From IMG/VR virus record IMGVR_UViG_2609459852_000016: DNA of 18,148 nucleotides. One strand, given 5' to 3'. Under the pieces are notes generated by a model. That model was not told the DNA's origin. It saw nothing but the letters and a program-made list of their open reading frames with translations, and did not search any database. Positions within the stretch are counted from its first letter, which is position 1; each line of letters begins with the position of its first letter. The translations under genes and the position numbers were made by a program. Source of the stretch: a virus. Its lineage: Duplodnaviria; Heunggongvirae; Uroviricota; Caudoviricetes. This document shows positions 1 to 16,592 of this stretch, in pieces.

Positions 1-507
1 ATGGAAAAGTTTTCATTGGAGTTCAAAAAGGTAGTATCAGAAAAGTACCTGGAGGGAGAGTTGAGTCTGAAATCTGTAGCAAGGATGTACGGTATCAGTC
101 CCTGCACAGTAAGAAAATGGGCTTATGCCTATCGGGAACATGGGATAAGCATACTTACGGGTAAAAAAGGACGCTATTCTGCTGAGTTAAAACTCACAGT
201 AGTAAAAGAAGTCGTGGATGACTGTTTTTCTGTTCGTGAAGTAGCGGTAAAACACGGAATACCAGCCTTTGGTACTGTATGCAACTGGCTTGAAAAATAT
301 AGAAAATATGGCGAAGATGCTTTCATTCGAAAAAATAAAAAGAGTATTCCTGTACCGGATAAAAGCGCCATTTCAGCACCACCACTACCAACATTAACCA
401 AAGATGAGAGAGAAGAACTTGAACAACTCAGGGTCGAGAATGCCTACTTAAAAAAGCTGAAAGCCTTGGTTCAGCAGAAAACATGCTCAACGTTCAGGAA
501 AAAGTGA
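1..507 (+). CDS. IS3-family transposase OrfA (HTH DNA-binding, leucine-zipper-like C-terminus)
   Basis: ATG at 1, stop TGA 505..507. C-terminal LEQLRVENAYLKKLKAL heptad-like segment is typical of IS3 OrfA proteins. Confidence 0.85.
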   Translation: MEKFSLEFKKVVSEKYLEGELSLKSVARMYGISPCTVRKWAYAYREHGISILTGKKGRYSAELKLTVVKEVVDDCFSVREVAVKHGIPAFGTVCNWLEKYRKYGEDAFIRKNKKSIPVPDKSAISAPPLPTLTKDEREELEQLRVENAYLKKLKALVQQKTCSTFRKK

Positions 508-1346
508 GCATTGTGAATGAACTAAGGCAGGAATGGCCATTATCCCGATTGTTAATTGTTTCCGGGCTGCCCCGGAGTACATTTTACTATCATGTCAGAC
601 GGCTTGCTGCTCCTGACCGGTATCAGTCTGCCAGAGCGCTTGTGCTGAAAATTTATCACCAGCACAAAGGCCGCTATGGTTACAGACGCATCAGGCTGGC
701 ATGTCGTAACGAGGGGGTTTTACTTAATGGTAAAACCGTCAGAAAACTGATGAAGGAACTGGGTATTAGCAGCCTGATCCGCGTTAAAAAATACCGTTCA
801 TATAAAGGAGAACAAGGACGAATTTGCGATAATCTCCTGAAACGCAATTTTGATGCAAAACGCCCCAACGAGAAGTGGGTTACAGATGTCACTGAATTTA
901 AAGTGAATGGCAAGAAGCTGTATTTGTCGCCCATCATGGATCTTTATAATGGAGAAATAATTTCCTATAACCTCGCCACTCGCCCTCAACCTTCAATGGT
1001 GCAGACTATGCTTACGGATGCGCTGAAACAGCTGTCGAAAGATGAACACCCCATACTGCACAGCGATCAAGGTTGGCAATATCAGATGTCCCGGTGGCAA
1101 CGATGGTTAAAGGATAGCGGTATAGTCCAGAGTATGTCTCGCCGGGGAAATTGTCTTGATAATGCAGTTATAGAGAGCTTTTTTGGAACATTGAAATCAG
1201 AATGTTATTACCTCAATGAATATAAAAATGTGGAGGACTTAAAGCGAGACATCATTGATTACATAAACTATTATAATCAATTGAGGATAAAGGAAAAACT
1301 TGGCGGTCTTAGCCCGGTACAATATCGATTGAGTCAGGCTGCATAA
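483..1346 (+). CDS. IS3-family transposase OrfB (DDE catalytic domain), probably expressed as an OrfAB fusion by -1 frameshift
   Basis: ORF in the -1 frame relative to orfA. Slippery run G AAA AAG at 498..504 sits immediately before the orfA stop. DDE motif residues are present. Confidence 0.85.
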   Translation: MLNVQEKVSIVNELRQEWPLSRLLIVSGLPRSTFYYHVRRLAAPDRYQSARALVLKIYHQHKGRYGYRRIRLACRNEGVLLNGKTVRKLMKELGISSLIRVKKYRSYKGEQGRICDNLLKRNFDAKRPNEKWVTDVTEFKVNGKKLYLSPIMDLYNGEIISYNLATRPQPSMVQTMLTDALKQLSKDEHPILHSDQGWQYQMSRWQRWLKDSGIVQSMSRRGNCLDNAVIESFFGTLKSECYYLNEYKNVEDLKRDIIDYINYYNQLRIKEKLGGLSPVQYRLSQAA

Positions 1347-1373: not shown

Positions 1374-1586
1374 AAATGCGCGGACGCCACCGTGCCGTTC
1401 CAGAAAGGCTTTTAAAGATGGGTGTTCACATTTACGAACACGTATCGTCACGCTGTAAGTTGACAACTGGTTATTCAGTCCCGCCGCACGACGCTGTTCA
1501 TAACCATCGCCCAGCTTCACTGTCACCACTTTCGGCTCTGATACCACATTCATATCCGGGCGCACTTTCCAGTGAAACGTCTCCAT
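1371..1586 (-). pseudogene. M: Minor tail protein M (lambda gpM-like), truncated by the IS insertion
   Basis: Translation METFHWKVRPDMNVVSEPKVVTVKLGDGYEQRRAAGLNNQLSTYSVTIRVRK...HGGVRAF matches lambda gpM (MKTFRWKVKPGMDVASVPSVRKVRFGDGYSQRAPAGLNANLKTYSVTLSV...HGGWKSF, from memory). The reading frame ends in a TGA formed by the first three bases of the IS terminus. About 70 of roughly 109 codons remain. Confidence 0.7.
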
Positions 1587-4500
1587 TACCGATATGCTCC
1601 ACTTAACCGACCACCATCACGGGCCTGCTGTTGCATAAAGTCCGCTGCCGCTTTTTTCCCAAGGTCATAAACCACCTTCAGGGCAGCCGGACCTATCTGC
1701 CCGTTCGTGCCATCGTTATTGATCTCGATGTTGTACTGCGGGGCAAACATCGCCATACCTGAACCACCAATATCCGCCACAACCCCCAGCTTACCGTCAG
1801 CACCACGACGCAGAGGCAGAATGGCTTCAGGTCCCGCTTCACCCATCACACCCGCGCCTTTTGCAAAAGCAAAAAACGTCGGACGGTTAACCACCGTGCC
1901 ACTGTAACGACTCAAATCAGCAGACTGATAAATCCCCCCATTGGCATTCAGGGAAAGGCTGCTGAGATCAAATCCCAGTACACTGCCAATCCCTTTTATC
2001 GATTTCATCATGGTTGCCTGCGCCAGGATTTTCGCCATATCTGACAGCACAGAAGAGGTGAAGGATTTGAAATTGAGTTTGCCGGTAGTGACAAAAGTTG
2101 CCAGGCCATTTCCCATGTTGCTGAAGGCTGACGAGAACACCTGTTCTGCTGTTCCTGCCGTATTATCTGCATCCACGGTAAAATCCTGAAATGCACGCAG
2201 GACTCCGTTTTTCCAGTTACCCTGCACAACTTCAAGCTGTTGCCAGTAACGGCGATTCTCATTCAGTTGTCGGTTCAGGCTCTCCGTCAGCGCCTGCTCG
2301 GCCTTTCTGTAGTCATCCGTGTTATATGTCCCTTTCTGCTCACTATCCCGCCTCAACTGCTCCAGCTGTTGCTGGTATTTCTGGCGAAGACTCAGTTGTA
2401 CCTGATATCGCTGCCGCTGCTGATCACCCATACCCACCGTGGCGATATCCAGGTCATGTTGCTGACGCTGAGCGCGCTCTTCTTCAGCCAGTTGACTGGT
2501 CAGCTGAATTGTTTTTTTCTTCAGATCGTTGAGTGCCGTCTGTTTCTGAAGCTCCTGCTGTTTTACATCCAGCAGCGTCAGTGCCTGAATCAGTTCATCT
2601 TTACGGGCCAGCACACTCTTTTCATCTGCCGTCAGTTTTTTCCCGTCCAGATCGCTGATGCGCTGCTGCAGAGCCAGAAGCTGTTTATGCGCTTCTGTCA
2701 TCTTTTCAGTGGCAATGCCTGCTGACTGTCTTGCAGCAGCAATCTGTCCTTCCACCTGTGCCTGTTGCTGACTGTACTGCAGCAATAACCGGGTGGCCTC
2801 ATCATTACGGGTTTCGCGTGTTTTTTTCTTACCGGATGCCAGGGCTTTCTCGTAACGTTCATTTTCACGTTGTATCGCTGCATCCCTGACAGCCTGATCG
2901 GCGTACTGCATGGAATTAATACGCGCAATTTCACGCTGATGTCGTGCTGCTTCCGTTTCATTCATCCGGTTCAGTGCAGCATTTTCAGCATTACGTCGTT
3001 TCTGTTGCTCCTGATAATTCCGCTCTGCCTGCTCTTTTGCATCCTGCAAATCCTTCTGGCGTTTTTTCTCCTGAAGATCGTTAAGACGCTGCTGATCGTA
3101 TTCAACCTGAGAAGATGATGCCGTCCAGGGGAGTCTTTTCGCCCGCGACACTTTCTCCTGTAAAGCGGCAATCTGTTCATCCAGCGAGTCTTCACGACCA
3201 ATATTCATGGCCGCATCCCAGAAACGACTCCACAAATCAGACAGATACTTCAGCGTACTGCCAAGCGCATTGAGGTTATCATCAATATCCGCAGTACGCC
3301 GACCGGTTTCCTCTGCCAGTGCAGACATGGCTATCCGTGCAGCATCACTGGACCGTCCCTGATCCCCAAGGACACGTATCTGCTCAAGCTGAGTGGCAGT
3401 AAGAAAATGCAGCTCATTGTCCAGAGCCTTCGCGGCATTTACAGGATCATCCTTCAGCCGCTTAAACTGATTTATGGTATCGCTGACCGACTGGCCAACC
3501 GATCGCTCCATCTGTGCGGCAGCTCTCGCCACCATACCGATATCGTTTCCACGAAATGCACCACTCCCCACCACCTGAGCCAGCGCACCGGCTGCAGCAT
3601 GTTGCGTGATACCATTCCCGGAAATAGCACGACTGAGCGTCCACAGCTGCCCGGCAGTGACTCCGGCATAATGCCCCGTCAGCGACAACTGGCGGTTAAA
3701 TTCTTCCCCCTCCTTCTGACCGTCATACCAGGCTTTACCCAGACCATAGACGGACGCGGCAATACCGCCAATAACCCCGCCAAGCATCATGCCTTTCGGT
3801 GACATCAGAGTGTCTATCCATCCGGCACGGTTAGCCAGCGTTATCCCGGATCCCCTCAGCGCCCCTAAATTGCCGCGGGCCAGTTCACCTATCAGAACGC
3901 CTATCTCCTGGCGGGCCGCTGCACTTTTCAGACCCAGCGAATGCGTGGCTTTTCCTGCCTGCTCCATTTTGCGGATATACACTTCTGCAGCACTGCTTAC
4001 CCCCAGCTGGGCAGCCTTAGCACGAAGCAACTCAGAAGAAGAAAGATTCTGGCGGGTTGCCTGCTCTTTAAGCTGACGGATAAACGCCACTTTCTGTCGG
4101 GTAGCCTCTTCCTCAGCCTGCGTAAGAACACGGGTTTTCGCCGTAACCTCAGAAATCAGCGCCAGATAATCCTGCTGACCAATCCCGCCACTGTTTCTGG
4201 CCTGTCGGATCTGCTGCTGAATACGCTGTAATTCCTGCAGCCCCGCACTGGCCTGTTTCACACTGTCAATCTGACGATAAAACGCGGCAGCCGCTTTATC
4301 CTGAGCCTCCGCCAGAGCCATGGCCTGCGCCTGTTCCTCGCGCATTTTCTGGCTCAGTGCCTCCATACGCTGGCGGGTTTGCTCCACCTCGCGGGCCATG
4401 CGTTCATGAGCCTGTGCGCTCTTCTCCACCGTCTGCGCATGGACGGATGCGGCTGTTGCAGCCGAAGAAGCCGCCTGCATTGTCTGCCGGGCGGCCTGAG

Positions 4501-4651
4501 TCTGACGCTCCATAAAACGCTGCATACGGGCAGAAGACCGTTCTGCATCGCTGGCTGCACCATTCAGAAGGTTTTTGATACGGGGAATTTCATTTTTAAA
4601 CTCTGCCGCATCAATCCCCAAATCAATGACCAGGTTGGCTATCTGGTCCAT
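1586..4651 (-). CDS. H: Tail tape measure protein (lambda gpH-like)
   Basis: N-terminus MDQIANLVIDLGIDAAEFKNE and C-terminus EINNDGTNGQIGPAALKVVYDL resemble lambda gpH. ATG at 4651 is preceded by GGAGG; the track start at 4681 is a TTG. Stop TAA overlaps the M start (TAATG). Confidence 0.9.
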   Translation of the reverse strand: MDQIANLVIDLGIDAAEFKNEIPRIKNLLNGAASDAERSSARMQRFMERQTQAARQTMQAASSAATAASVHAQTVEKSAQAHERMAREVEQTRQRMEALSQKMREEQAQAMALAEAQDKAAAAFYRQIDSVKQASAGLQELQRIQQQIRQARNSGGIGQQDYLALISEVTAKTRVLTQAEEEATRQKVAFIRQLKEQATRQNLSSSELLRAKAAQLGVSSAAEVYIRKMEQAGKATHSLGLKSAAARQEIGVLIGELARGNLGALRGSGITLANRAGWIDTLMSPKGMMLGGVIGGIAASVYGLGKAWYDGQKEGEEFNRQLSLTGHYAGVTAGQLWTLSRAISGNGITQHAAAGALAQVVGSGAFRGNDIGMVARAAAQMERSVGQSVSDTINQFKRLKDDPVNAAKALDNELHFLTATQLEQIRVLGDQGRSSDAARIAMSALAEETGRRTADIDDNLNALGSTLKYLSDLWSRFWDAAMNIGREDSLDEQIAALQEKVSRAKRLPWTASSSQVEYDQQRLNDLQEKKRQKDLQDAKEQAERNYQEQQKRRNAENAALNRMNETEAARHQREIARINSMQYADQAVRDAAIQRENERYEKALASGKKKTRETRNDEATRLLLQYSQQQAQVEGQIAAARQSAGIATEKMTEAHKQLLALQQRISDLDGKKLTADEKSVLARKDELIQALTLLDVKQQELQKQTALNDLKKKTIQLTSQLAEEERAQRQQHDLDIATVGMGDQQRQRYQVQLSLRQKYQQQLEQLRRDSEQKGTYNTDDYRKAEQALTESLNRQLNENRRYWQQLEVVQGNWKNGVLRAFQDFTVDADNTAGTAEQVFSSAFSNMGNGLATFVTTGKLNFKSFTSSVLSDMAKILAQATMMKSIKGIGSVLGFDLSSLSLNANGGIYQSADLSRYSGTVVNRPTFFAFAKGAGVMGEAGPEAILPLRRGADGKLGVVADIGGSGMAMFAPQYNIEINNDGTNGQIGPAALKVVYDLGKKAAADFMQQQARDGGRLSGAYR

Positions 4652-5350
4652 AACGCACACCTCCGGAAATACCTTCCCCAAGATGCATCAGTTCTTCGTC
4701 CGTTCGCTCCGGTATCCCGTTCTCTTCCGGTAAAAGGCTGAAATCAGCCACCGCAGCATCACTGCTACCGGACACCATTCTCACGATCAATGCCTTCAGC
4801 GAGGCAAACTGCGCATCCATCCACACATCACTGAAGCTCTGCATCCGGAAATAATCGCCCCACTCACCAAGCTCAGTGGCCGACATTTCCGACAGCATCC
4901 GCCGCCAGTCTGCCCGCCGGAACTCCCGGGCAAGCCGCATGACAAACTGCATTTCCCGCGTCAGGACTTTTCCGGCGTCAGCACCTCATGCTCCAAATCC
5001 CCGGCATTCTCAATGACTCCCATACCGCTCAGCGACAGAACCATCTCCGCCCCCGCTCCCAGGGCATCATACGACCATGTTGTAATAACGGATGCGCAAA
5101 GCGTCTCAACATCCTGAGACTGTTCCGCATTCCACAGTGAGCGGGAAACCAGCCAGGCATTGATATCCATCCCCATCCGCAGAAAAGCAATCTGTCGTTC
5201 AGCCTCCGGCAGTTCTCCCTCTTCGGCATCAAACTTTGCCGTTCGCTGCTGAACAAACGCCAGATATTCAATTCTCTGCAGCCCGGACAGCTCACTGAGC
5301 ACCACGGACTGCTTTTCATAATTAAACGTGCCCTGTTTCAGAAACATCAT
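4623..5350 (-). CDS. Tail assembly chaperone GT fusion, made by programmed -1 frameshift near the end of G
   Basis: The T-frame ORF (4623..4952) lies in the -1 frame relative to G and overlaps its 3-prime end. Candidate slip site GGAAAAG (plus-strand 4967..4973, read on minus) is analogous to lambda GGGAAAG. The T frame is closed by a stop 13 nt upstream of the slip site. Confidence 0.6.
4961..5350 (-). CDS. G: Tail assembly chaperone G (lambda gpG-like)
   Basis: MMFLKQGTFNYEKQSVVLSELSGLQRIEYLA resembles lambda gpG (MFLKTESFEHNGVTVTLSELSALQRIEHLA). ATG at 5350 (or 5347) is preceded by GGTGGAG; the track start at 5389 is a TTG. Confidence 0.8.
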   Translation of the reverse strand: MMFLKQGTFNYEKQSVVLSELSGLQRIEYLAFVQQRTAKFDAEEGELPEAERQIAFLRMGMDINAWLVSRSLWNAEQSQDVETLCASVITTWSYDALGAGAEMVLSLSGMGVIENAGDLEHEVLTPEKS

Positions 5351-5363
5351 GTTCTCCACCTGC

Positions 5364-5387
5364 AAAAAAGCCCCGGATAACCGGGGC
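5364..5387 (-). terminator. Intrinsic terminator between major tail gene V and G
   Basis: On the minus strand: GCCCCGG-UUAU-CCGGGGC (7-bp GC stem) followed by UUUUUU, lying between the V stop (5408) and the G SD/start (5350). Confidence 0.65.
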
Positions 5388-6162: not shown

Positions 6163-6564
6163 TTAATTCGTGTACGTGATCTGGTACGTGATTTCCGCCA
6201 TCGCCCAGGTGGCCATCTCATTATCACGTTGATAGTTAAAACCGAGAGGGATCAGGGTGTCGATGAGTCCGGAAAGTGCCGGTATATCATTCAGGGCCGG
6301 GAAAATGGTGCTCTCCATCCACATATCCAGCTCTGAATCCGGTGCCTGTGCCCGGATGAAGACAGCAATATGCAGAACAGCCTGCCAGTCATCTTCATCC
6401 GTCATTTTTCCGGTGTACTGAGCATCACTCAGCCACACCGCCACGGCAGGCAGTTCCTGCGCATCAATAAATGCCGGAAGCCCGTCAAAAAACGTGGCGC
6501 TGTCTCCACACTGTTCCCGAAGGCGTGCCAGTACGGCCTGGCGGATTTGTGTATGTCGGTTCAT
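6163..6564 (-). CDS. U: Tail terminator protein U (lambda gpU-like)
   Basis: MNRHTQIRQAVLARL...ATFFDG...PAVAVWL...DSELDMWMES matches lambda gpU. Start ATG overlaps the Z stop (ATGA). Confidence 0.85.
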   Translation of the reverse strand: MNRHTQIRQAVLARLREQCGDSATFFDGLPAFIDAQELPAVAVWLSDAQYTGKMTDEDDWQAVLHIAVFIRAQAPDSELDMWMESTIFPALNDIPALSGLIDTLIPLGFNYQRDNEMATWAMAEITYQITYTN

Positions 6565-7150: not shown

Positions 7151-7426
7151 TTACTCAATAAAGATCATTGGCTTACCGTTAAAACGTTCATGCCGTGTGA
7201 CCGTCCATTGTTGTCCGTCATAAACAACGCGATCCCCGCGCCGTGGGCGGTATCCCGAAGAAAACACCACCAGAGAGACCGCAGGTCCGGACAGAGCATT
7301 CAGCTCTGCCAGTGTTTCTCCCGGGATCACAGTCATATCGACATCATTAATCGAGGCTGTCTTTCCCATCTTTCTAACCGTGATAGCATCCATACGCGCT
7401 GCCAGCCGGGAAAAGGGATCAGACAT
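7151..7426 (-). CDS. Head-tail joining protein (lambda FII-like)
   Basis: Sits in the FII position (before Z), about 90 aa, with weak motif similarity to lambda FII. Overlaps the upstream gene by 8 nt. Confidence 0.55.
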   Translation of the reverse strand: MSDPFSRLAARMDAITVRKMGKTASINDVDMTVIPGETLAELNALSGPAVSLVVFSSGYRPRRGDRVVYDGQQWTVTRHERFNGKPMIFIE

Positions 7427-7742
7427 TGAGTTTTACCGGCACTTCTTCTGCACTGGTTCCGGCATCTGCCCAGACAACCCCGACCAGCGGATCAGAGCCG
7501 CTGTTAGTCAGCTGAACTTTTCCGGACTTCAGATAAACCTTCTTACCCGTTTTCATGTCATCCGTTTTCAGCTTAGGCAGCATAAACACACCTTCGGTCA
7601 TGCCGTCGCCTGTTTCACCCTGTGGAATATCGGTCAGCGCCACCGCAAAAACATCGCCCACCTGCACCAGATCTCCGCTGCTGATGGCTGCACTGGCAAC
7701 AATCGCCACCGTTTTTCCTTCTTCTACAAAATTCTTTGCCAT
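7419..7742 (-). CDS. Small head-associated protein (possible DUF2190-like / head decoration), in the FI position
   Basis: ATG at 7742 with GGAG SD; 107 aa, Gly/Val-rich. Function is inferred only from position after the capsid gene. Confidence 0.5.
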   Translation of the reverse strand: MAKNFVEEGKTVAIVASAAISSGDLVQVGDVFAVALTDIPQGETGDGMTEGVFMLPKLKTDDMKTGKKVYLKSGKVQLTNSGSDPLVGVVWADAGTSAEEVPVKLNV

Positions 7743-7785
7743 AACTGTCTCCGCACAGCCCCGTTCAGGGGCTGATTTCAGGTAC

Positions 7786-7804
7786 AAAAAAAGCCCTTAC
7801 GGGC
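7786..7804 (-). terminator. Putative intrinsic terminator/attenuator immediately after the capsid gene
   Basis: Minus strand: GCCC-GUAA-GGGC (GNRA loop) followed by UUUUUUU. A second 6-bp hairpin AGCCCC-UGAAC-GGGGCU lies at 7757..7773. Confidence 0.45.
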
Positions 7805-7828
7805 CATCAGAGTTGTTGTCTGCGACGT

Positions 7829-9787
7829 TTACGCCGTACATTTCACCAGACCGCGGTGATCAACTGGCGCGACACCGGCGTCAATACGCACTTTCGTTGT
7901 CACGCCATCCACACTGAAGCCCTCCATCTGATCAATATATGGCGTATCCACACCGTTGAGATAAGCCACTTCAATCGTATCGGAGCCTTTTGACGCAGCC
8001 AGGTAGAAGGTGGTCTGGCTGTTATCATCAAGACGAGGCTCTGCAATAACGGTCGCAAAATCTTTCACCGGGTTAATAATACCGGCGTTAATGTCAGCCC
8101 CCTTGACACTTGAGGAGCGAATGACCTGGTTAGCAACAGACTCCATCGCCGTCGGTACCAGTACGAACGCAGGACGAATATTCAGATGACGCTCCCCCTC
8201 TTTCTGAACGCGCATCAACTGGCGGGCTTTATCCAGCGATGCCACGTCCATTGCAGCGCTCTCCAGTACGTTTGCATGTTTCGCTTTATCGAACAGACTT
8301 ACATTATCTGTGGAGATTTTCGGGTTAGACGTCAGAATGGCATAAACCAGATCGGCAATAGTGGATTTCGCCGCACGGCCCAGTTTCATCGGGACATCGG
8401 TCAGCATATTCAGATCATCATTGATAATGGCCTGACGGGTGATACTGAACAGCTCGCCATAGGTCGCCAGTGCAATAGTGGCCTGTTTATCTCCGGTGGT
8501 GACGTATTTATATTCCGCCCCTTCACGCACCTGACGCAGAGCACTGAAGCCCCCCATACCCACACGATGGGCAATTTTAAAATCAGACAACTGACCTTTC
8601 CGCGTCCACTGTTCATAGGTTTCAGGGGCATCTTCCCAGCCCTGCAGAATGGCTTTGTTCGCAACATCCAGCAGAATATTACCGAAGTCAGACGTACTGT
8701 GTGTGAACGCCGCACCGACCATCTGCATCGGGTTATAACCGGAAACCCCAATACCCCGTTCAGTTAGTGACATACGGGCATATTCACGCAGGGTCATCCC
8801 GTTGTAGACATTATCACGTTCGGTTTTTTCAAATCCGGCACGCGCCATCAGCGCCTGGCGAATCCCGTCCCCCACAAAATTACCGTTACCGGCATAAATA
8901 TGAGCCGGGGTATTTTTATTGGATGGCGTGGACTCGCGCCCCATCTCGTTCAACAGCTTTTCACGGGCCTGCTCCAGCGAACATTCAGGATCGGCAAGAC
9001 ACTGGGCCTGCAGCGTCTGATAACGCCCACCAAACATGGCAAACAGATCATTAATACCGTTTACACGCGCTTTTTGCTCTGCCAGTACCTGCGCACGGAT
9101 ACTGTTTTCATCCACCACGGGTGCTGCTGCCTGCACTGGCGTCCGGGAGGCTGCAGGTTCATCATCCTGTACGCGTGGAGCACTGTTGCGTGGCGGAGTA
9201 ATCATGTTTCGAATGGATTCCGGCATCTTTTTAAATTCCTCTGTACGTTTTGACTGAATACATGCCATTGCCTTAACGGCTGGTGTCACCTGATCAGCAA
9301 ATCCCTGTGCCAGACATTCGGCACCGGACATCCAGGTCTCATCCGCCAGCATGGCAGCAATTTCATCGGTGGTTTTCCCGGTTTTCTGTGCATAAGCGGG
9401 TAACAGAACCGCCTCAACTTTATCGAGCAGGTCGGCATAGGTGCGCATGTCCTCCGCATCACCGCCCGTAAAGCCAAATGGTTTATGAATCATCATGAAG
9501 GAGTTTTCCGGCATAATGACCGGGTTTCCCACCATCGCAATGACCGACGCCATTGACGCCGCCACACCGTCGACATAAACGGTAATGGACGCACCATGTG
9601 TTTTCAGTGCATTAAAAATGGCGATGCCTTCAAAGACATCGCCACCCGGTGAATTAATATGGAGATTAATGTGGGTGATATCGCCCAGTGCATTCAGATC
9701 ACTGATAAACTGCTTCGCTGTAACACCCCAGAAACCAATCTCGTCATAAATATAAATATCCGCGTCACTCTGGTGACCTGCCTGCAT
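7829..9787 (-). CDS. Prohead protease (ClpP/S14-like) fused to major capsid protein (HK97-fold)
   Basis: N-terminal ClpP-like region (DIYIYDEIGFWG...INSPGGDV...GVAASMAS...MIHKPF), then an Ala/Pro-rich linker and a roughly 400-aa capsid-like C-terminal region. ATG at 9787 is 14 nt after the portal stop; the longer track ORF overlaps portal by about 250 nt. Confidence 0.75.
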   Translation of the reverse strand: MQAGHQSDADIYIYDEIGFWGVTAKQFISDLNALGDITHINLHINSPGGDVFEGIAIFNALKTHGASITVYVDGVAASMASVIAMVGNPVIMPENSFMMIHKPFGFTGGDAEDMRTYADLLDKVEAVLLPAYAQKTGKTTDEIAAMLADETWMSGAECLAQGFADQVTPAVKAMACIQSKRTEEFKKMPESIRNMITPPRNSAPRVQDDEPAASRTPVQAAAPVVDENSIRAQVLAEQKARVNGINDLFAMFGGRYQTLQAQCLADPECSLEQAREKLLNEMGRESTPSNKNTPAHIYAGNGNFVGDGIRQALMARAGFEKTERDNVYNGMTLREYARMSLTERGIGVSGYNPMQMVGAAFTHSTSDFGNILLDVANKAILQGWEDAPETYEQWTRKGQLSDFKIAHRVGMGGFSALRQVREGAEYKYVTTGDKQATIALATYGELFSITRQAIINDDLNMLTDVPMKLGRAAKSTIADLVYAILTSNPKISTDNVSLFDKAKHANVLESAAMDVASLDKARQLMRVQKEGERHLNIRPAFVLVPTAMESVANQVIRSSSVKGADINAGIINPVKDFATVIAEPRLDDNSQTTFYLAASKGSDTIEVAYLNGVDTPYIDQMEGFSVDGVTTKVRIDAGVAPVDHRGLVKCTA

Positions 9788-14205: not shown

Positions 14206-14246
14206 ATAAAAATAAAACCACTGTAATATCAATCAATTACAGTGGT
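14206..14246 (-). other. Perfect 11-bp-stem hairpin plus U-tract in the cosB position (terminator-like or terminase/IHF site)
   Basis: Plus-strand accactgtaat-atcaatca-attacagtggt (14217..14246). On the minus strand it is followed by UUUAUUUUUAU (14206..14216). Confidence 0.4.
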
Positions 14247-14873: not shown

Positions 14874-15168
14874 TTTGTCGCTCCATTCGTTTGCTCTTCA
14901 CTTGCGGCTAAAAATATAACGTCAAATCACTCAGCATGAAAGAGTGAAAGTTTCAGCGCGTTTCCCTCACATAATCTGTCGTTTGTATTCTCTTCAGGCA
15001 TACCGGAAAGACTAGGTATTGTCACACAACCAATACCATCGACAATCGAGATTTATATCTATTCGGTAATGTTTAAATATAACAAAACCCCGTAAAAACG
15101 AGGTTTATGGGTAATTTGTATTGTTGAATAGCATCTGATGAGAAATTGATGCTAATACTATAAACATG

Positions 15169-15342
15169 CTAGATTAAATCAATCTTGATATCATAGCTTT
15201 CAAGACCAGTCATTTTTTCCCGTGCAGTAAACTGGATACTGGTAACTTCTTTCCCGGTCTTTTTCTTAAGCTCAATGATTTTTTTTGTTATATATTCAGA
15301 AATATCTGCTTCTGTTTTTGTTTTTAACTCTTCAATGTTCAT
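15169..15342 (-). CDS. gnsB: GnsA/GnsB-family protein
   Basis: MNIEELKTKTEADISEYITKKIIELKKKTGKEVTSIQFTAREKMTGLESYDIKIDLI closely resembles E. coli GnsB (from memory). ATG at 15342 with AGAGGA SD. Confidence 0.75.
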   Translation of the reverse strand: MNIEELKTKTEADISEYITKKIIELKKKTGKEVTSIQFTAREKMTGLESYDIKIDLI

Positions 15343-15514
15343 CATTTCCTCTTTTAGTCTGTTATGACTGTCCTGGTACACAGTAGTGTCAATTATATGG
15401 AGCAAACGTATAAAAGATAAGATGAAACATCGCAATAATCAACATACGACGGTCTAAATTTCACACAAACAGATAAAGATGATTATCATTTATTATCAAT
15501 GCATTAGAATCAAA

Positions 15515-15809: not shown

Positions 15810-16016
15810 CTTCATTTTCACTTTCTTAAATCTAACGACAGATGGCTAACATTTAAGTATTGTGAAATATTATCAAATGTAATCATCATTGATTTACAAA
15901 AGATACATTTTGCCCCGAAAGGATTTCTGTCAGAAACATCAAAAGATGATGTTCTATACTGAGAACCATGGCAACACGGGCATCTAAAGTGAATATGGTT
16001 TGTAATATTTTCTACC

Positions 16017-16229
16017 TCAAAGTGCCACTACATGAACAGCTGCAGGGCCTTTAGGTCCGTTCTCAATACCAAATTCGACTTCCTGATTCTCAGTTAACGT
16101 TTTGAAATCGTTGCTCTGAATAGCTGAGAAATGCACAAACACATCTTTGCTACCATCTTTCGGCGTGATGAAACCAAAACCTTTTTCAGGGTTAAACCAT
16201 TTCACTAAACCAGTCATTTTGTTAGACAT
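16017..16229 (-). CDS. cspI: CspA-family cold-shock protein (CspI-like)
   Basis: [38 protein letters not shown]...: cold-shock domain with RNP motifs, near-identical to E. coli CspI as I recall it. AAGGTAATA SD-like leader. Confidence 0.9.
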
Positions 16230-16592
16230 CATTATTACCTTTTGAAGAAGTTAGCCCTTGGGCAGAATGGTCCGAAAAAAAATATCAGAGAGAAAAACCA
16301 ACAAGGAAATCTCAAGAGGTACAAATAATAAAATTATAACAATGACTGCTTCAGATAATTTTGTAACAAACCAGAACACCATTAACGCATGATTAACCAA
16401 CCATAGCAAGGATTACTTTTGTAAAGAAAAACACACGAATGAAACAATAGCTTTATTTATTAATAAAACGTGTCATTCTGTCTAATGACCTTTTATCTTA
16501 CCCTTAAGATTTCAAGGATTTTGACTCATGGAAGAGTCCTTTTTATTTAAATTTCACATTCAGCGCTAAAAATAATCCGATTTAATATTAAT
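16230..16592 (-). promoter_or_regulatory. AT-rich promoter and long 5-prime leader region upstream of cspI
   Basis: About 360 bp without ORFs between the Rz stop and cspI start. Contains a TATAAT on the minus strand (plus-strand 16333..16338). Cold-shock genes typically have long structured leaders. Exact promoter not resolved. Confidence 0.3.

Follow-up and report, generated by a model that had tools for sequence, protein, structure and literature searches.

A conserved two-hairpin module between the capsid and cement genes in the late operons of lambdoid phages of Enterobacterales

Results

The window analysed here is an 18,148-nucleotide (nt) stretch of DNA (IMG/VR virus record IMGVR_UViG_2609459852_000016) that covers the late region (lysis, head and tail genes) of a lambdoid Escherichia coli prophage, in which the transcribed strand is the minus strand. 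We focused on the junction between the major capsid gene and the gene that follows it, where two RNA hairpins lie in tandem; this region of interest is at least 99% identical to phages mEp460, Ayreon and cdtI, the first two of which form plaques on K-12. The upstream gene (7829..9787, minus strand) codes for a fusion of a ClpP-like protease, scaffold and major capsid protein (Pfam CLP_protease, 3.4e-36; Phage_capsid_4, 8e-55), which the Prokaryotic Genome Annotation Pipeline (PGAP) names 'ClpP-like prohead protease/major capsid protein fusion protein'. Its stop codon, TAA, occupies 7831-7829 (minus strand), and while the mechanically called open reading frame (ORF) reaches 10048, the start annotated in mEp460 is the ATG at 9787. 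The downstream gene (7419..7742, minus strand) encodes a cement or decoration protein of 107 amino acids (aa) that begins MAKNF and matches Pfam Phage_cement_2 (DUF2190; 9e-21), and homologues of this protein occupy the same post-capsid position in all relatives. We place its start at the ATG at 7742-7740 (minus strand). The alternative start offered by the ORF list, TTG 7787 (122 aa), was rejected as a mechanical artefact, as the extension that it implies (7743-7787) crosses a U tract and the second hairpin, is not conserved, and, by our reading, meets an in-frame stop in the Gifsy-2 spacer.

Read on the minus strand, the junction is built as follows. A spacer of 23 nt (7806..7828), poorly conserved, separates the capsid stop from hairpin 1 (7792..7805; GGCCC-GUAA-GGGCU), which has four G-C pairs and a closing G·U pair and is made up of G7805, GCCC (7804-7801), the loop GUAA (7800-7797), GGGC (7796-7793) and U7792. 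Immediately 3' of this stem runs a tract of seven U (U7; 7786..7792, minus strand), followed by a single-stranded linker of 11 nt, GUACCUGAAAU (7775..7785, minus strand). Hairpin 2 comes next (7756..7774, minus strand; CAGCCCC-UGAAC-GGGGCUG), with a 7-bp stem formed by CAGCCCC (7774-7768) and GGGGCUG (7762-7756) around the loop UGAAC (7767-7763). The Shine-Dalgarno sequence (SD) of the cement gene, GGAG (7749..7752, minus strand), lies 3 nt (UGC) past hairpin 2 and 6 nt before the ATG. Folded alone, hairpins 1 and 2 have energies of -8.5 and -13.9 kcal/mol, respectively, and when 7735-7835 (minus strand) was folded as a whole by RNAfold (-34.8 kcal/mol, z = -2.1), both hairpins were present in the minimum-energy and the centroid structures. 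An initial annotation of the window had described tandem hairpins directly after the capsid gene, comprising a terminator with a GNRA loop and a second stem-loop of 6 bp. All of its elements are found at the positions given, and the folding-energy calculation that it called for predicts both hairpins. The second stem proved to be 7 bp long, and the GNRA loop, present in the window as GUAA, is not conserved, since relatives have GUCA, UGAC, AUCA, UAAC and other loops at this position.

Together with the U tract, hairpin 1 has the anatomy of an intrinsic terminator: a GC-rich stem-loop with U residues immediately after it, beginning 23 nt past the TAA and hence beyond the reach of a terminating ribosome. 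A terminator scan of the window reports 7805-7792, and the window contains GCCC-N4-GGGC-T6 a single time, with no instance of this pattern in 200 shuffles. The folding energy of hairpin 1 has a family mean of -8.0 kcal/mol; stems of 4-5 bp and about -8 kcal/mol are at the weak end of terminator statistics. In GenBank, the mEp460 record (JQ182728) lists hairpin 1 as a 'rho-independent terminator' at 6334-6353, and the records of Ayreon (MF807953) and mEp043 (JQ182734) also annotate this terminator, so that hairpin 1 is an ordinary, previously annotated feature and not a new one. We rejected it as a bidirectional terminator, as the T run lies on one side only. Hairpin 2 has no U tract after it, either in the window (where UGCGGAG follows) or in any relative, and is therefore not an intrinsic terminator.

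Capsid-cement junctions were gathered by three routes, which gave 60 distinct junctions from Enterobacterales phages and prophages in all: phages recovered in a tblastn search with the cement protein (38-63% identity); contigs from a set with one genome per species, found by protein pattern; and a DNA-pattern scan of IMG/VR that required GGGC-T7-N4-CTGAA and is thus biased towards the motif. This last route returned 120 loci, about 40 of which are unrelated, ordinary terminators without hairpin 2. The diversity of the set comes from these three routes, a search of viral contigs having yielded near-identical loci only. The genera sampled are Escherichia, Salmonella, Klebsiella, Citrobacter, Enterobacter, Rahnella, Pantoea, Ewingella, Edwardsiella, Sodalis, Proteus, Providencia and Yokenella. 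The same layout was found in every Enterobacterales junction, including the relatives found by protein (cement identity 38-66%), which are free of DNA-motif bias. Conservation in related prophages, on which the initial annotation had staked its proposal, therefore extends to both hairpins.

The module is conserved at least as well as its coding flanks: its identity to the window is 67-84% in most relatives and 56-60% in the two most distant, and that of the flanks is 57-81%. The spacer falls below the flanking coding sequence, with an identity to the window that is mostly 39-65% (78% in Fels-1 and 17% in Chris1). Of 19 relatives, 18 have a spacer of 19-30 nt; that of Chris1 is 4 nt long. From hairpin 1 to the linker it is the sequence itself that is constrained. 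The GCCC/GGGC stem of hairpin 1 is unchanged in 58-61 of 61 aligned junctions, with a tetraloop that varies; the U tract consists of seven T in every enterobacterial junction save that of Sodalis, which has eight; and the linker is unpaired, conserved in sequence (consensus AUACCUGAAAUC) and 9-13 nt long in 56 of the 60 junctions. The GGAG of the SD is invariant or nearly so in the alignment. With R1, a covariance model of the module, each phage locus gives a single strong match (47-85 bits, with 27 for the divergent copy of Chris1). All other matches score 21 bits or less, among them a weak partial match, to hairpin 1 only, at the junction of the tail genes V and G (20.5 bits).

The exact module of the window occurs in 1822 of 5426 complete E. 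coli genomes, and related versions are carried by Shiga toxin (Stx) phages of enterohaemorrhagic E. coli (EHEC), by the Salmonella prophages Gifsy-2 and Fels-1, and in Klebsiella. In the lambdoid prophages of EHEC Sakai the junctions read TGCCCGAAAGGGCTTTTTTTATGCCTGAAAAACAGCCCCACAGGGGCTG. Some variants of the window-type module (loci L021, L045 and L077, junction at about 1435-1503) weaken one of the hairpins: GUCCC in hairpin 1 brings its energy up to -4.1 kcal/mol, and hairpin 2 occurs with GGGGCAG or with AGCCUC, the latter giving a G·U pair. These natural variants are ready-made alleles for tests of function.

Hairpin 2 keeps its structure while its sequence changes. Across the 60 junctions it takes 52 distinct sequences, with a mean energy of -13.2 kcal/mol (z = -3.4), and its stems include CCGGCAC/GUGCCGG (Gifsy-2), CGCCCC/GGGGCG (Rahnella), CCGGUCA/UGACCGG (Fels-1 type), GGCCUCUC/GAGAGGCC (Edwardsiella) and CAGGCUUC/GAGGCCUG (Sodalis). 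In an unfitted MAFFT alignment, five of the seven pairs are changed on both sides, with 31 compensatory cells compared with 12.2±2.6 in shuffles. Aligned with the covariance model, five of seven pairs again have compensatory changes and pairing holds in 91% of cells; 45 compensatory (double-change) cells were counted against 12.3±2.9 in shuffles, a value reached by none of 500 shuffles, although these shuffle statistics overstate independence since the sequences are phylogenetically related and the set is partly motif-biased. Controls in which the register of hairpin 2 was slid gave at most 14 compensatory cells, and the distinct stem types recovered by protein-based searches alone already show several independent compensatory replacements. 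RNAalifold, run on the MAFFT alignment, recovers hairpin 1 and only the three inner pairs of hairpin 2, owing to register shifts; the full helix is obtained when the structure is given or the covariance-model alignment is used. Hairpin 2 is thus a stable, conserved RNA structure at the boundary of two segments of an operon.

The strand on which this structure is maintained can be read from its wobble pairs and loops. In the sense orientation there are 30 G·U or U·G cells and only 3 A·C or C·A cells, and the loops are often GNRA or UUCG, which read as such in the sense strand alone. Because of this asymmetry and these loops, the pattern points to selection of hairpin 2 as a stable structure in sense RNA, and not in DNA or antisense RNA. 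Were hairpin 2 to work in DNA or on the plus strand, it might be a protein-binding palindrome, or a terminator for the antisense direction that forms a back-to-back pair with hairpin 1. On the plus strand it is indeed followed by AUUUC, and junctions of the Stx type and of Sodalis have as many as five U there, but given the 30:3 wobble asymmetry and the confinement of stable tetraloops to the sense strand, we consider such a role extremely unlikely.

Translational operators typically lie where hairpin 2 does, just 5' of the SD, and it is conceivable that a trans-acting regulator (a translational repressor such as the cement or capsid protein) binds it, or that a small RNA (sRNA) or Hfq acts on the linker, whose sequence is conserved. 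Both the stem and the loop of hairpin 2 vary freely, however, and its loops are of generic kinds (GNRA, UUCG and others), which argues against sequence-specific recognition. We identified no candidate regulator, and think this account very unlikely. No Rfam family matched the capsid-cement junction at the gathering threshold, the best sub-threshold match in a search to E ≤ 10 scoring 15.5 bits against a cut-off of 35. The prophage Pas sRNAs, which lie in the antiterminator-Q, RusA and holin-lysozyme regions, and HnrS, a separate sRNA of 66 nt within prophage late genes, were treated as unrelated.

The terminator could also be followed by an internal promoter, such that a transcript of the cement and downstream genes would start within the linker and hairpin 2 would form its 5' end. 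In a lysogen, the Gifsy-2 genes STM1034-8 are listed as likely HilA-regulated (Smith et al. 2016, PMC5013294), a set that starts at the cement homologue and excludes the capsid gene, and the Rockhopper table of the same study places a transcript stop at the end of the capsid gene. Yet the read counts in these tables are very low. Furthermore, no sigma-70-like -35/-10 pair with a spacing of 16-18 nt is present in the spacer of the window or of Gifsy-2; the would-be -10 element is TGTACC in the window, with a last position that is never T; and the -35 position would fall inside the invariant hairpin 1. When the linker was compared by eye with the sigma-E, sigma-32 and extended -10 consensus sequences, no matching partner element was found. 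An internal promoter is accordingly a highly improbable explanation. The expression of STM1034-STM1038 is reported to correlate with Salmonella pathogenicity island 1 (SPI-1; PMC5013294), which, on those very low read counts, could mean that a separate RNA species begins at the Gifsy-2 junction in lysogens.

The distance between hairpin 2 and the SD is tightly held, at 0-5 nt in 58 of the 60 junctions and 9 nt in the two outliers. Pasteurellaceae relatives have a single terminator, and there a similar A/U-rich stretch directly abuts the SD; in proteobacterial relatives at a greater distance there is one GC hairpin, which often lacks a good U tract. Because the linker and the SD are in contact in Pasteurellaceae, hairpin 2 appears to be an insertion, specific to Enterobacterales, between these two elements. 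The post-capsid terminator of Pasteurellaceae has a form of its own, ACCGCACUU...AAGUGCGGU followed by U6 (loci L104, L115-L117 and L125, at about 1440-1480, and L010, at about 1150-1185), which we take to be an inverted pair of sequences like the uptake signal sequence (USS) of Haemophilus.

This geometry bears on the main rival to the interpretation that we favour below, namely that hairpin 2 serves translation initiation. It would insulate the SD and AUG of the cement gene from long-range pairing and, by folding back, bring U7 and the A/U-rich linker beside the SD, the linker acting as a landing or standby site for the ribosome (via S1), and the outcome would be very high, uncoupled translation of the cement gene. 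The invariant SD, the tight gap before it, and the resemblance of hairpin 2 to an insertion that preserves the proximity of linker and SD are all in keeping with this idea, as are the need for cement protein in capsid-like amounts and the stable tetraloops, which suggest a purely structural role. On the other hand, a hairpin placed at the SD could equally hinder binding of the 30S subunit, and relatives that lack hairpin 2 exist. Although we judge it unlikely, a translational role is compatible with the favoured interpretation and does not exclude it.

PMC8538268, citing Effantin et al. 2010, reports that the Gifsy-2 homologue of the cement protein occupies every 3-fold axis of the capsid in the form of a trimer. 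Because of this, the cement protein is needed at about 1:1 with capsid, and by our own arithmetic a T=7 shell would take roughly one cement subunit per capsid subunit. The initial annotation had seen in the next gene an accessory head protein whose stoichiometry to capsid is set at this site; a low-copy accessory product, lowered by an attenuator, is not supported, given a cement protein required at about 1:1 and the Q antiterminator that these phages encode. The Q gene is present in mEp460, and Q prevents termination in the late operon (PMC7547250), which should leave late transcription largely blind to the weak terminator of hairpin 1.

The same two facts explain why a plain attenuator fits poorly. 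On this account, hairpin 1 and U7 would end a fixed fraction of late transcripts and so lower the expression of all post-capsid genes, with hairpin 2 incidental or a back-up. Its appeal lies in the canonical anatomy of hairpin 1 and its annotation as a terminator, in the presence of terminator-like hairpins after capsid and V, the two structural genes with the most abundant products, and in partial termination having been put forward as one possible role of intra-operon terminators (PMC8022706). But the gene next in line is needed in capsid-like amounts, Q-modified polymerase ignores terminators (PMC7547250), and the covariation and sense selection of hairpin 2, its fixed spacing from the SD and the conserved linker are all left unexplained, making simple attenuation somewhat unlikely. 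Two pairings that would make the attenuator switchable were also rejected: that between GGGC of hairpin 1 and GCCC of hairpin 2 and that between an upstream CUGAU and AUCAG at the foot of hairpin 2 are both possible in the window, but both are absent, by eye, from the Gifsy-2, mEp043 and Klebsiella versions. The proposal of an attenuator or an RNA-processing site, as first made for this locus, therefore stands in part. Hairpin 1 has the anatomy and annotation of a terminator, and a role in processing or stability is plausible and compatible with the conserved linker and covarying hairpin 2, but inspection found no conserved pairing of the kind that a switch would need.

A parallel drawn in the initial annotation, with a terminator between the major tail gene V and gene G, is borne out. 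This hairpin is real (5370..5387, minus strand; GCCCCGG-UUAU-CCGGGGC followed by U6); it was reported by the terminator scan and is annotated in mEp460, and HK97 likewise has annotated terminators behind its capsid and tail-tube genes. The V-G terminator is a single hairpin with an SD directly after it and no second hairpin.

Beyond the cement gene, Pfam matches give the gene order as Gifsy-2-family head-tail protein, Z, U, V, G, T and tape measure. Immediately past the end of the tape-measure gene (1586-4681), two overlapping ORFs of an IS3-family transposase lie on the opposite strand (1-1346, plus strand; HTH_Tnp_1/HTH_28, then an rve integrase core). The tail module therefore appears to be broken by an insertion sequence (IS), and the prophage may be defective. 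Elsewhere in the window, Rfam reports a cspA thermoregulator at 15971-16387 (minus strand; 110 bits, E = 8e-28), spanning the 5' untranslated region (UTR) and gene of a 71-aa cold-shock-domain protein (ORF 16017-16232, minus strand; Pfam CSD, 1.7e-31). Located between the lysis genes and terS, this csp gene looks like a cold-shock-protein (Csp) moron with its own RNA thermosensor in the late region. It is adjoined by an 88-aa ORF with a GnsA/GnsB domain (15169-15435, minus strand; 8e-33), and we take the pair to match the cspI-gnsB arrangement of the K-12 Qin prophage. The interval from Rz to terS is much shorter in mEp460. Two more terminator-like hairpins on the late strand, at 14217-14246 and 15085-15106 (minus strand), lie upstream of terS in this moron region between the lysis and packaging genes; one of the pair has an 11-bp AT-rich stem with a U-rich tail and the other a 9-bp stem.

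Discussion

In Q-dependent late operons, annotations of terminator-like hairpins go back more than 20 years, and these hairpins typically stand just behind the genes for capsid and tail tube. At the junction studied here, the new part is the conserved linker with the covarying, SD-abutting hairpin 2, which appears to be undescribed. Our favoured interpretation, to which we give a probability of about 0.45, is that the module is a form of intercistronic punctuation in phage late mRNA whose three parts differ in their evolutionary behaviour. It would combine a leaky terminator acting on polymerase without Q, a decay and processing insulator that works in both directions on the antiterminated message, and an independent, strong ribosome-binding site (RBS) for the cement gene. 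We infer termination, cleavage and any effect of the module on half-life or translation from the arrangement described above.

In this proposal, hairpin 1 and U7 would act as a short, weak terminator that stops or thins polymerase not modified by Q, whether the lysogen is being transcribed by chance or, perhaps, in part of the late transcription. On the Q-antiterminated late transcript, both hairpins would act post-transcriptionally. Exonucleases that degrade the RNA 3' to 5' would be held up, on their way from downstream, by the strong hairpin 2 (and by hairpin 1), and the capsid message would then outlast the tail message, as with the 3' protective stem-loops of malE-malF and puf. In the other direction, an endonucleolytic cut of the RNase E type in the A/U-rich linker would turn hairpin 2 into a 5'-terminal stem-loop. 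If the cut in the window fell at AA↓AU (the arrow marking the cleavage point), some 2-3 unpaired nt would remain before hairpin 2, which, sitting just before a ribosome-covered SD, could shield the segment from cement to tail genes in the manner of papBA and ompA. The cement gene, translated from its own strong and uncoupled RBS, could in this way reach about 1:1 with capsid.

Differential decay along the operon would fit the combination of a short, fixed terminator, a fixed A/U-rich linker, a strong hairpin of arbitrary sequence and almost no naked RNA before the RBS. There is precedent in E. coli, where 3' protective structures, and RNase E cuts upstream of stable structures, shape the stoichiometry of operons and are conserved (PMC5927463). 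A minimal RNase E-type motif, RN↓WU, lies within 5 nt of hairpin 2 in 39 of the 60 linkers.

Several observations weigh against this interpretation. The full RN↓WUU motif is found in only 9 of 60 linkers, and because of this the RNase E step is best described as compatible with the data and not as demonstrated. A U at +2 is missing from linkers of the mEp043 (GAAACC) and Stx (GAAAAAC) types. In a map of RNase E sites in Salmonella, the Gifsy-2 junction has no entry, and its expression there is very low. A stem of 4-5 bp makes hairpin 1 weak both as a terminator and as a barrier to exonucleases, and since this stem never covaries among the aligned junctions, its pairing is argued from thermodynamics and analogy alone. 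In addition, Pasteurellaceae relatives lack hairpin 2, which is therefore not essential to the capsid-cement arrangement, and a barrier to decay does not by itself obviously explain why the sequence of the linker is conserved.

In a more far-reaching version, the terminator, the CCUGAAAUC linker and hairpin 2 would together form an undescribed cis-acting RNA element of phages of the Gifsy-2, cdtI and mEp460 type. A host factor (RNase E, S1, Hfq or ProQ) would recognise the linker, the message would be split into capsid and cement-tail mRNAs that are separately stabilised, possibly with release of a fragment of the capsid 3' UTR, and the ratio of capsid to cement would be fixed at roughly 1:1. 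We think it unlikely that all of this holds; if it did, the intra-operon terminators of lambdoid phages, so far listed as of 'role unknown', would gain a concrete function.

The junction is an unusually clean case, in which one half is constrained in sequence and the other in structure. If its hairpins do set the stability of capsid and post-capsid messages, a general rule for the stoichiometry of structural proteins in these phages would follow, along with a compact natural part for operon design (terminator, insulator hairpin and RBS); if the module is merely a leaky terminator with a stabilising hairpin, it is ordinary. Sakai carries the module, and for this strain there are Term-seq and differential RNA sequencing (dRNA-seq) data (GSE143631) as well as UV cross-linking data for RNase E and Hfq (PRJNA310426, PRJNA197291), all of them cited in PMC7547250.

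Phage lambda, whose late operon is related, resembles the window in having small GC hairpins, which here lie on both sides of the major capsid gene: GCCGC-CUGU-GCGGC followed by U7 in the gap between D and E (at about 1095-1135 of locus L261), and GGCCC-UUCG-GGGCC just after E, in the gap between E and FI (at about 2163-2185). For neither of these does the annotation table of NC_001416 give a regulatory feature. Lambda differs in that its decoration gene precedes the capsid gene, each gap has a single hairpin, and there is neither a CCUGAAAUC linker nor a second hairpin abutting the SD.

Outside phages, RNase E cuts papBA in unstructured RNA a short way before a stable hairpin, which then protects the segment downstream, and the 5' stem-loop of ompA is of a similar kind; the phage junction resembles them in its conserved, single-stranded A/U-rich linker with a strong hairpin directly after it. 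Unlike papBA, the phage junction has the full RN↓WUU in few linkers (9 of 60) and its cleavage is putative, and the known structures lie mostly inside coding sequence. The repetitive extragenic palindromic (REP) sequence of malE-malF and the 'mRNA decay terminator' of puf are also stable intercistronic hairpins that lack a U tract, follow the most-needed gene and are conserved in structure (PMC5927463). Hairpin 2, by comparison, has no REP consensus and is present in one copy per phage, and is therefore neither a REP nor a bacterial interspersed mosaic element (BIME); it is paired with an upstream terminator, lies 0-5 nt from the next SD, and has a decay role that is putative.

The closest parallels are the intra-operon terminators of lambdoid phages (HK97, mEp460, mEp043 and Ayreon, and phage L), in which the same combination of GC hairpin and T run occurs within a single Q-dependent late operon. 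In the reference record of HK97, one putative terminator stands directly behind the major head gene and another directly behind the major tail gene, just as in the window phage. In the P22-like phage L, whose genome was described in 2020, a terminator follows the procapsid module; the authors describe what these terminators do as not known, and suggest partial termination or the stopping of transcription begun without antitermination (PMC8022706). HK97, lambda and the window's own V-G junction all lack the linker and hairpin 2, whereas the terminator behind the capsid gene of the window is the first half of a longer module.

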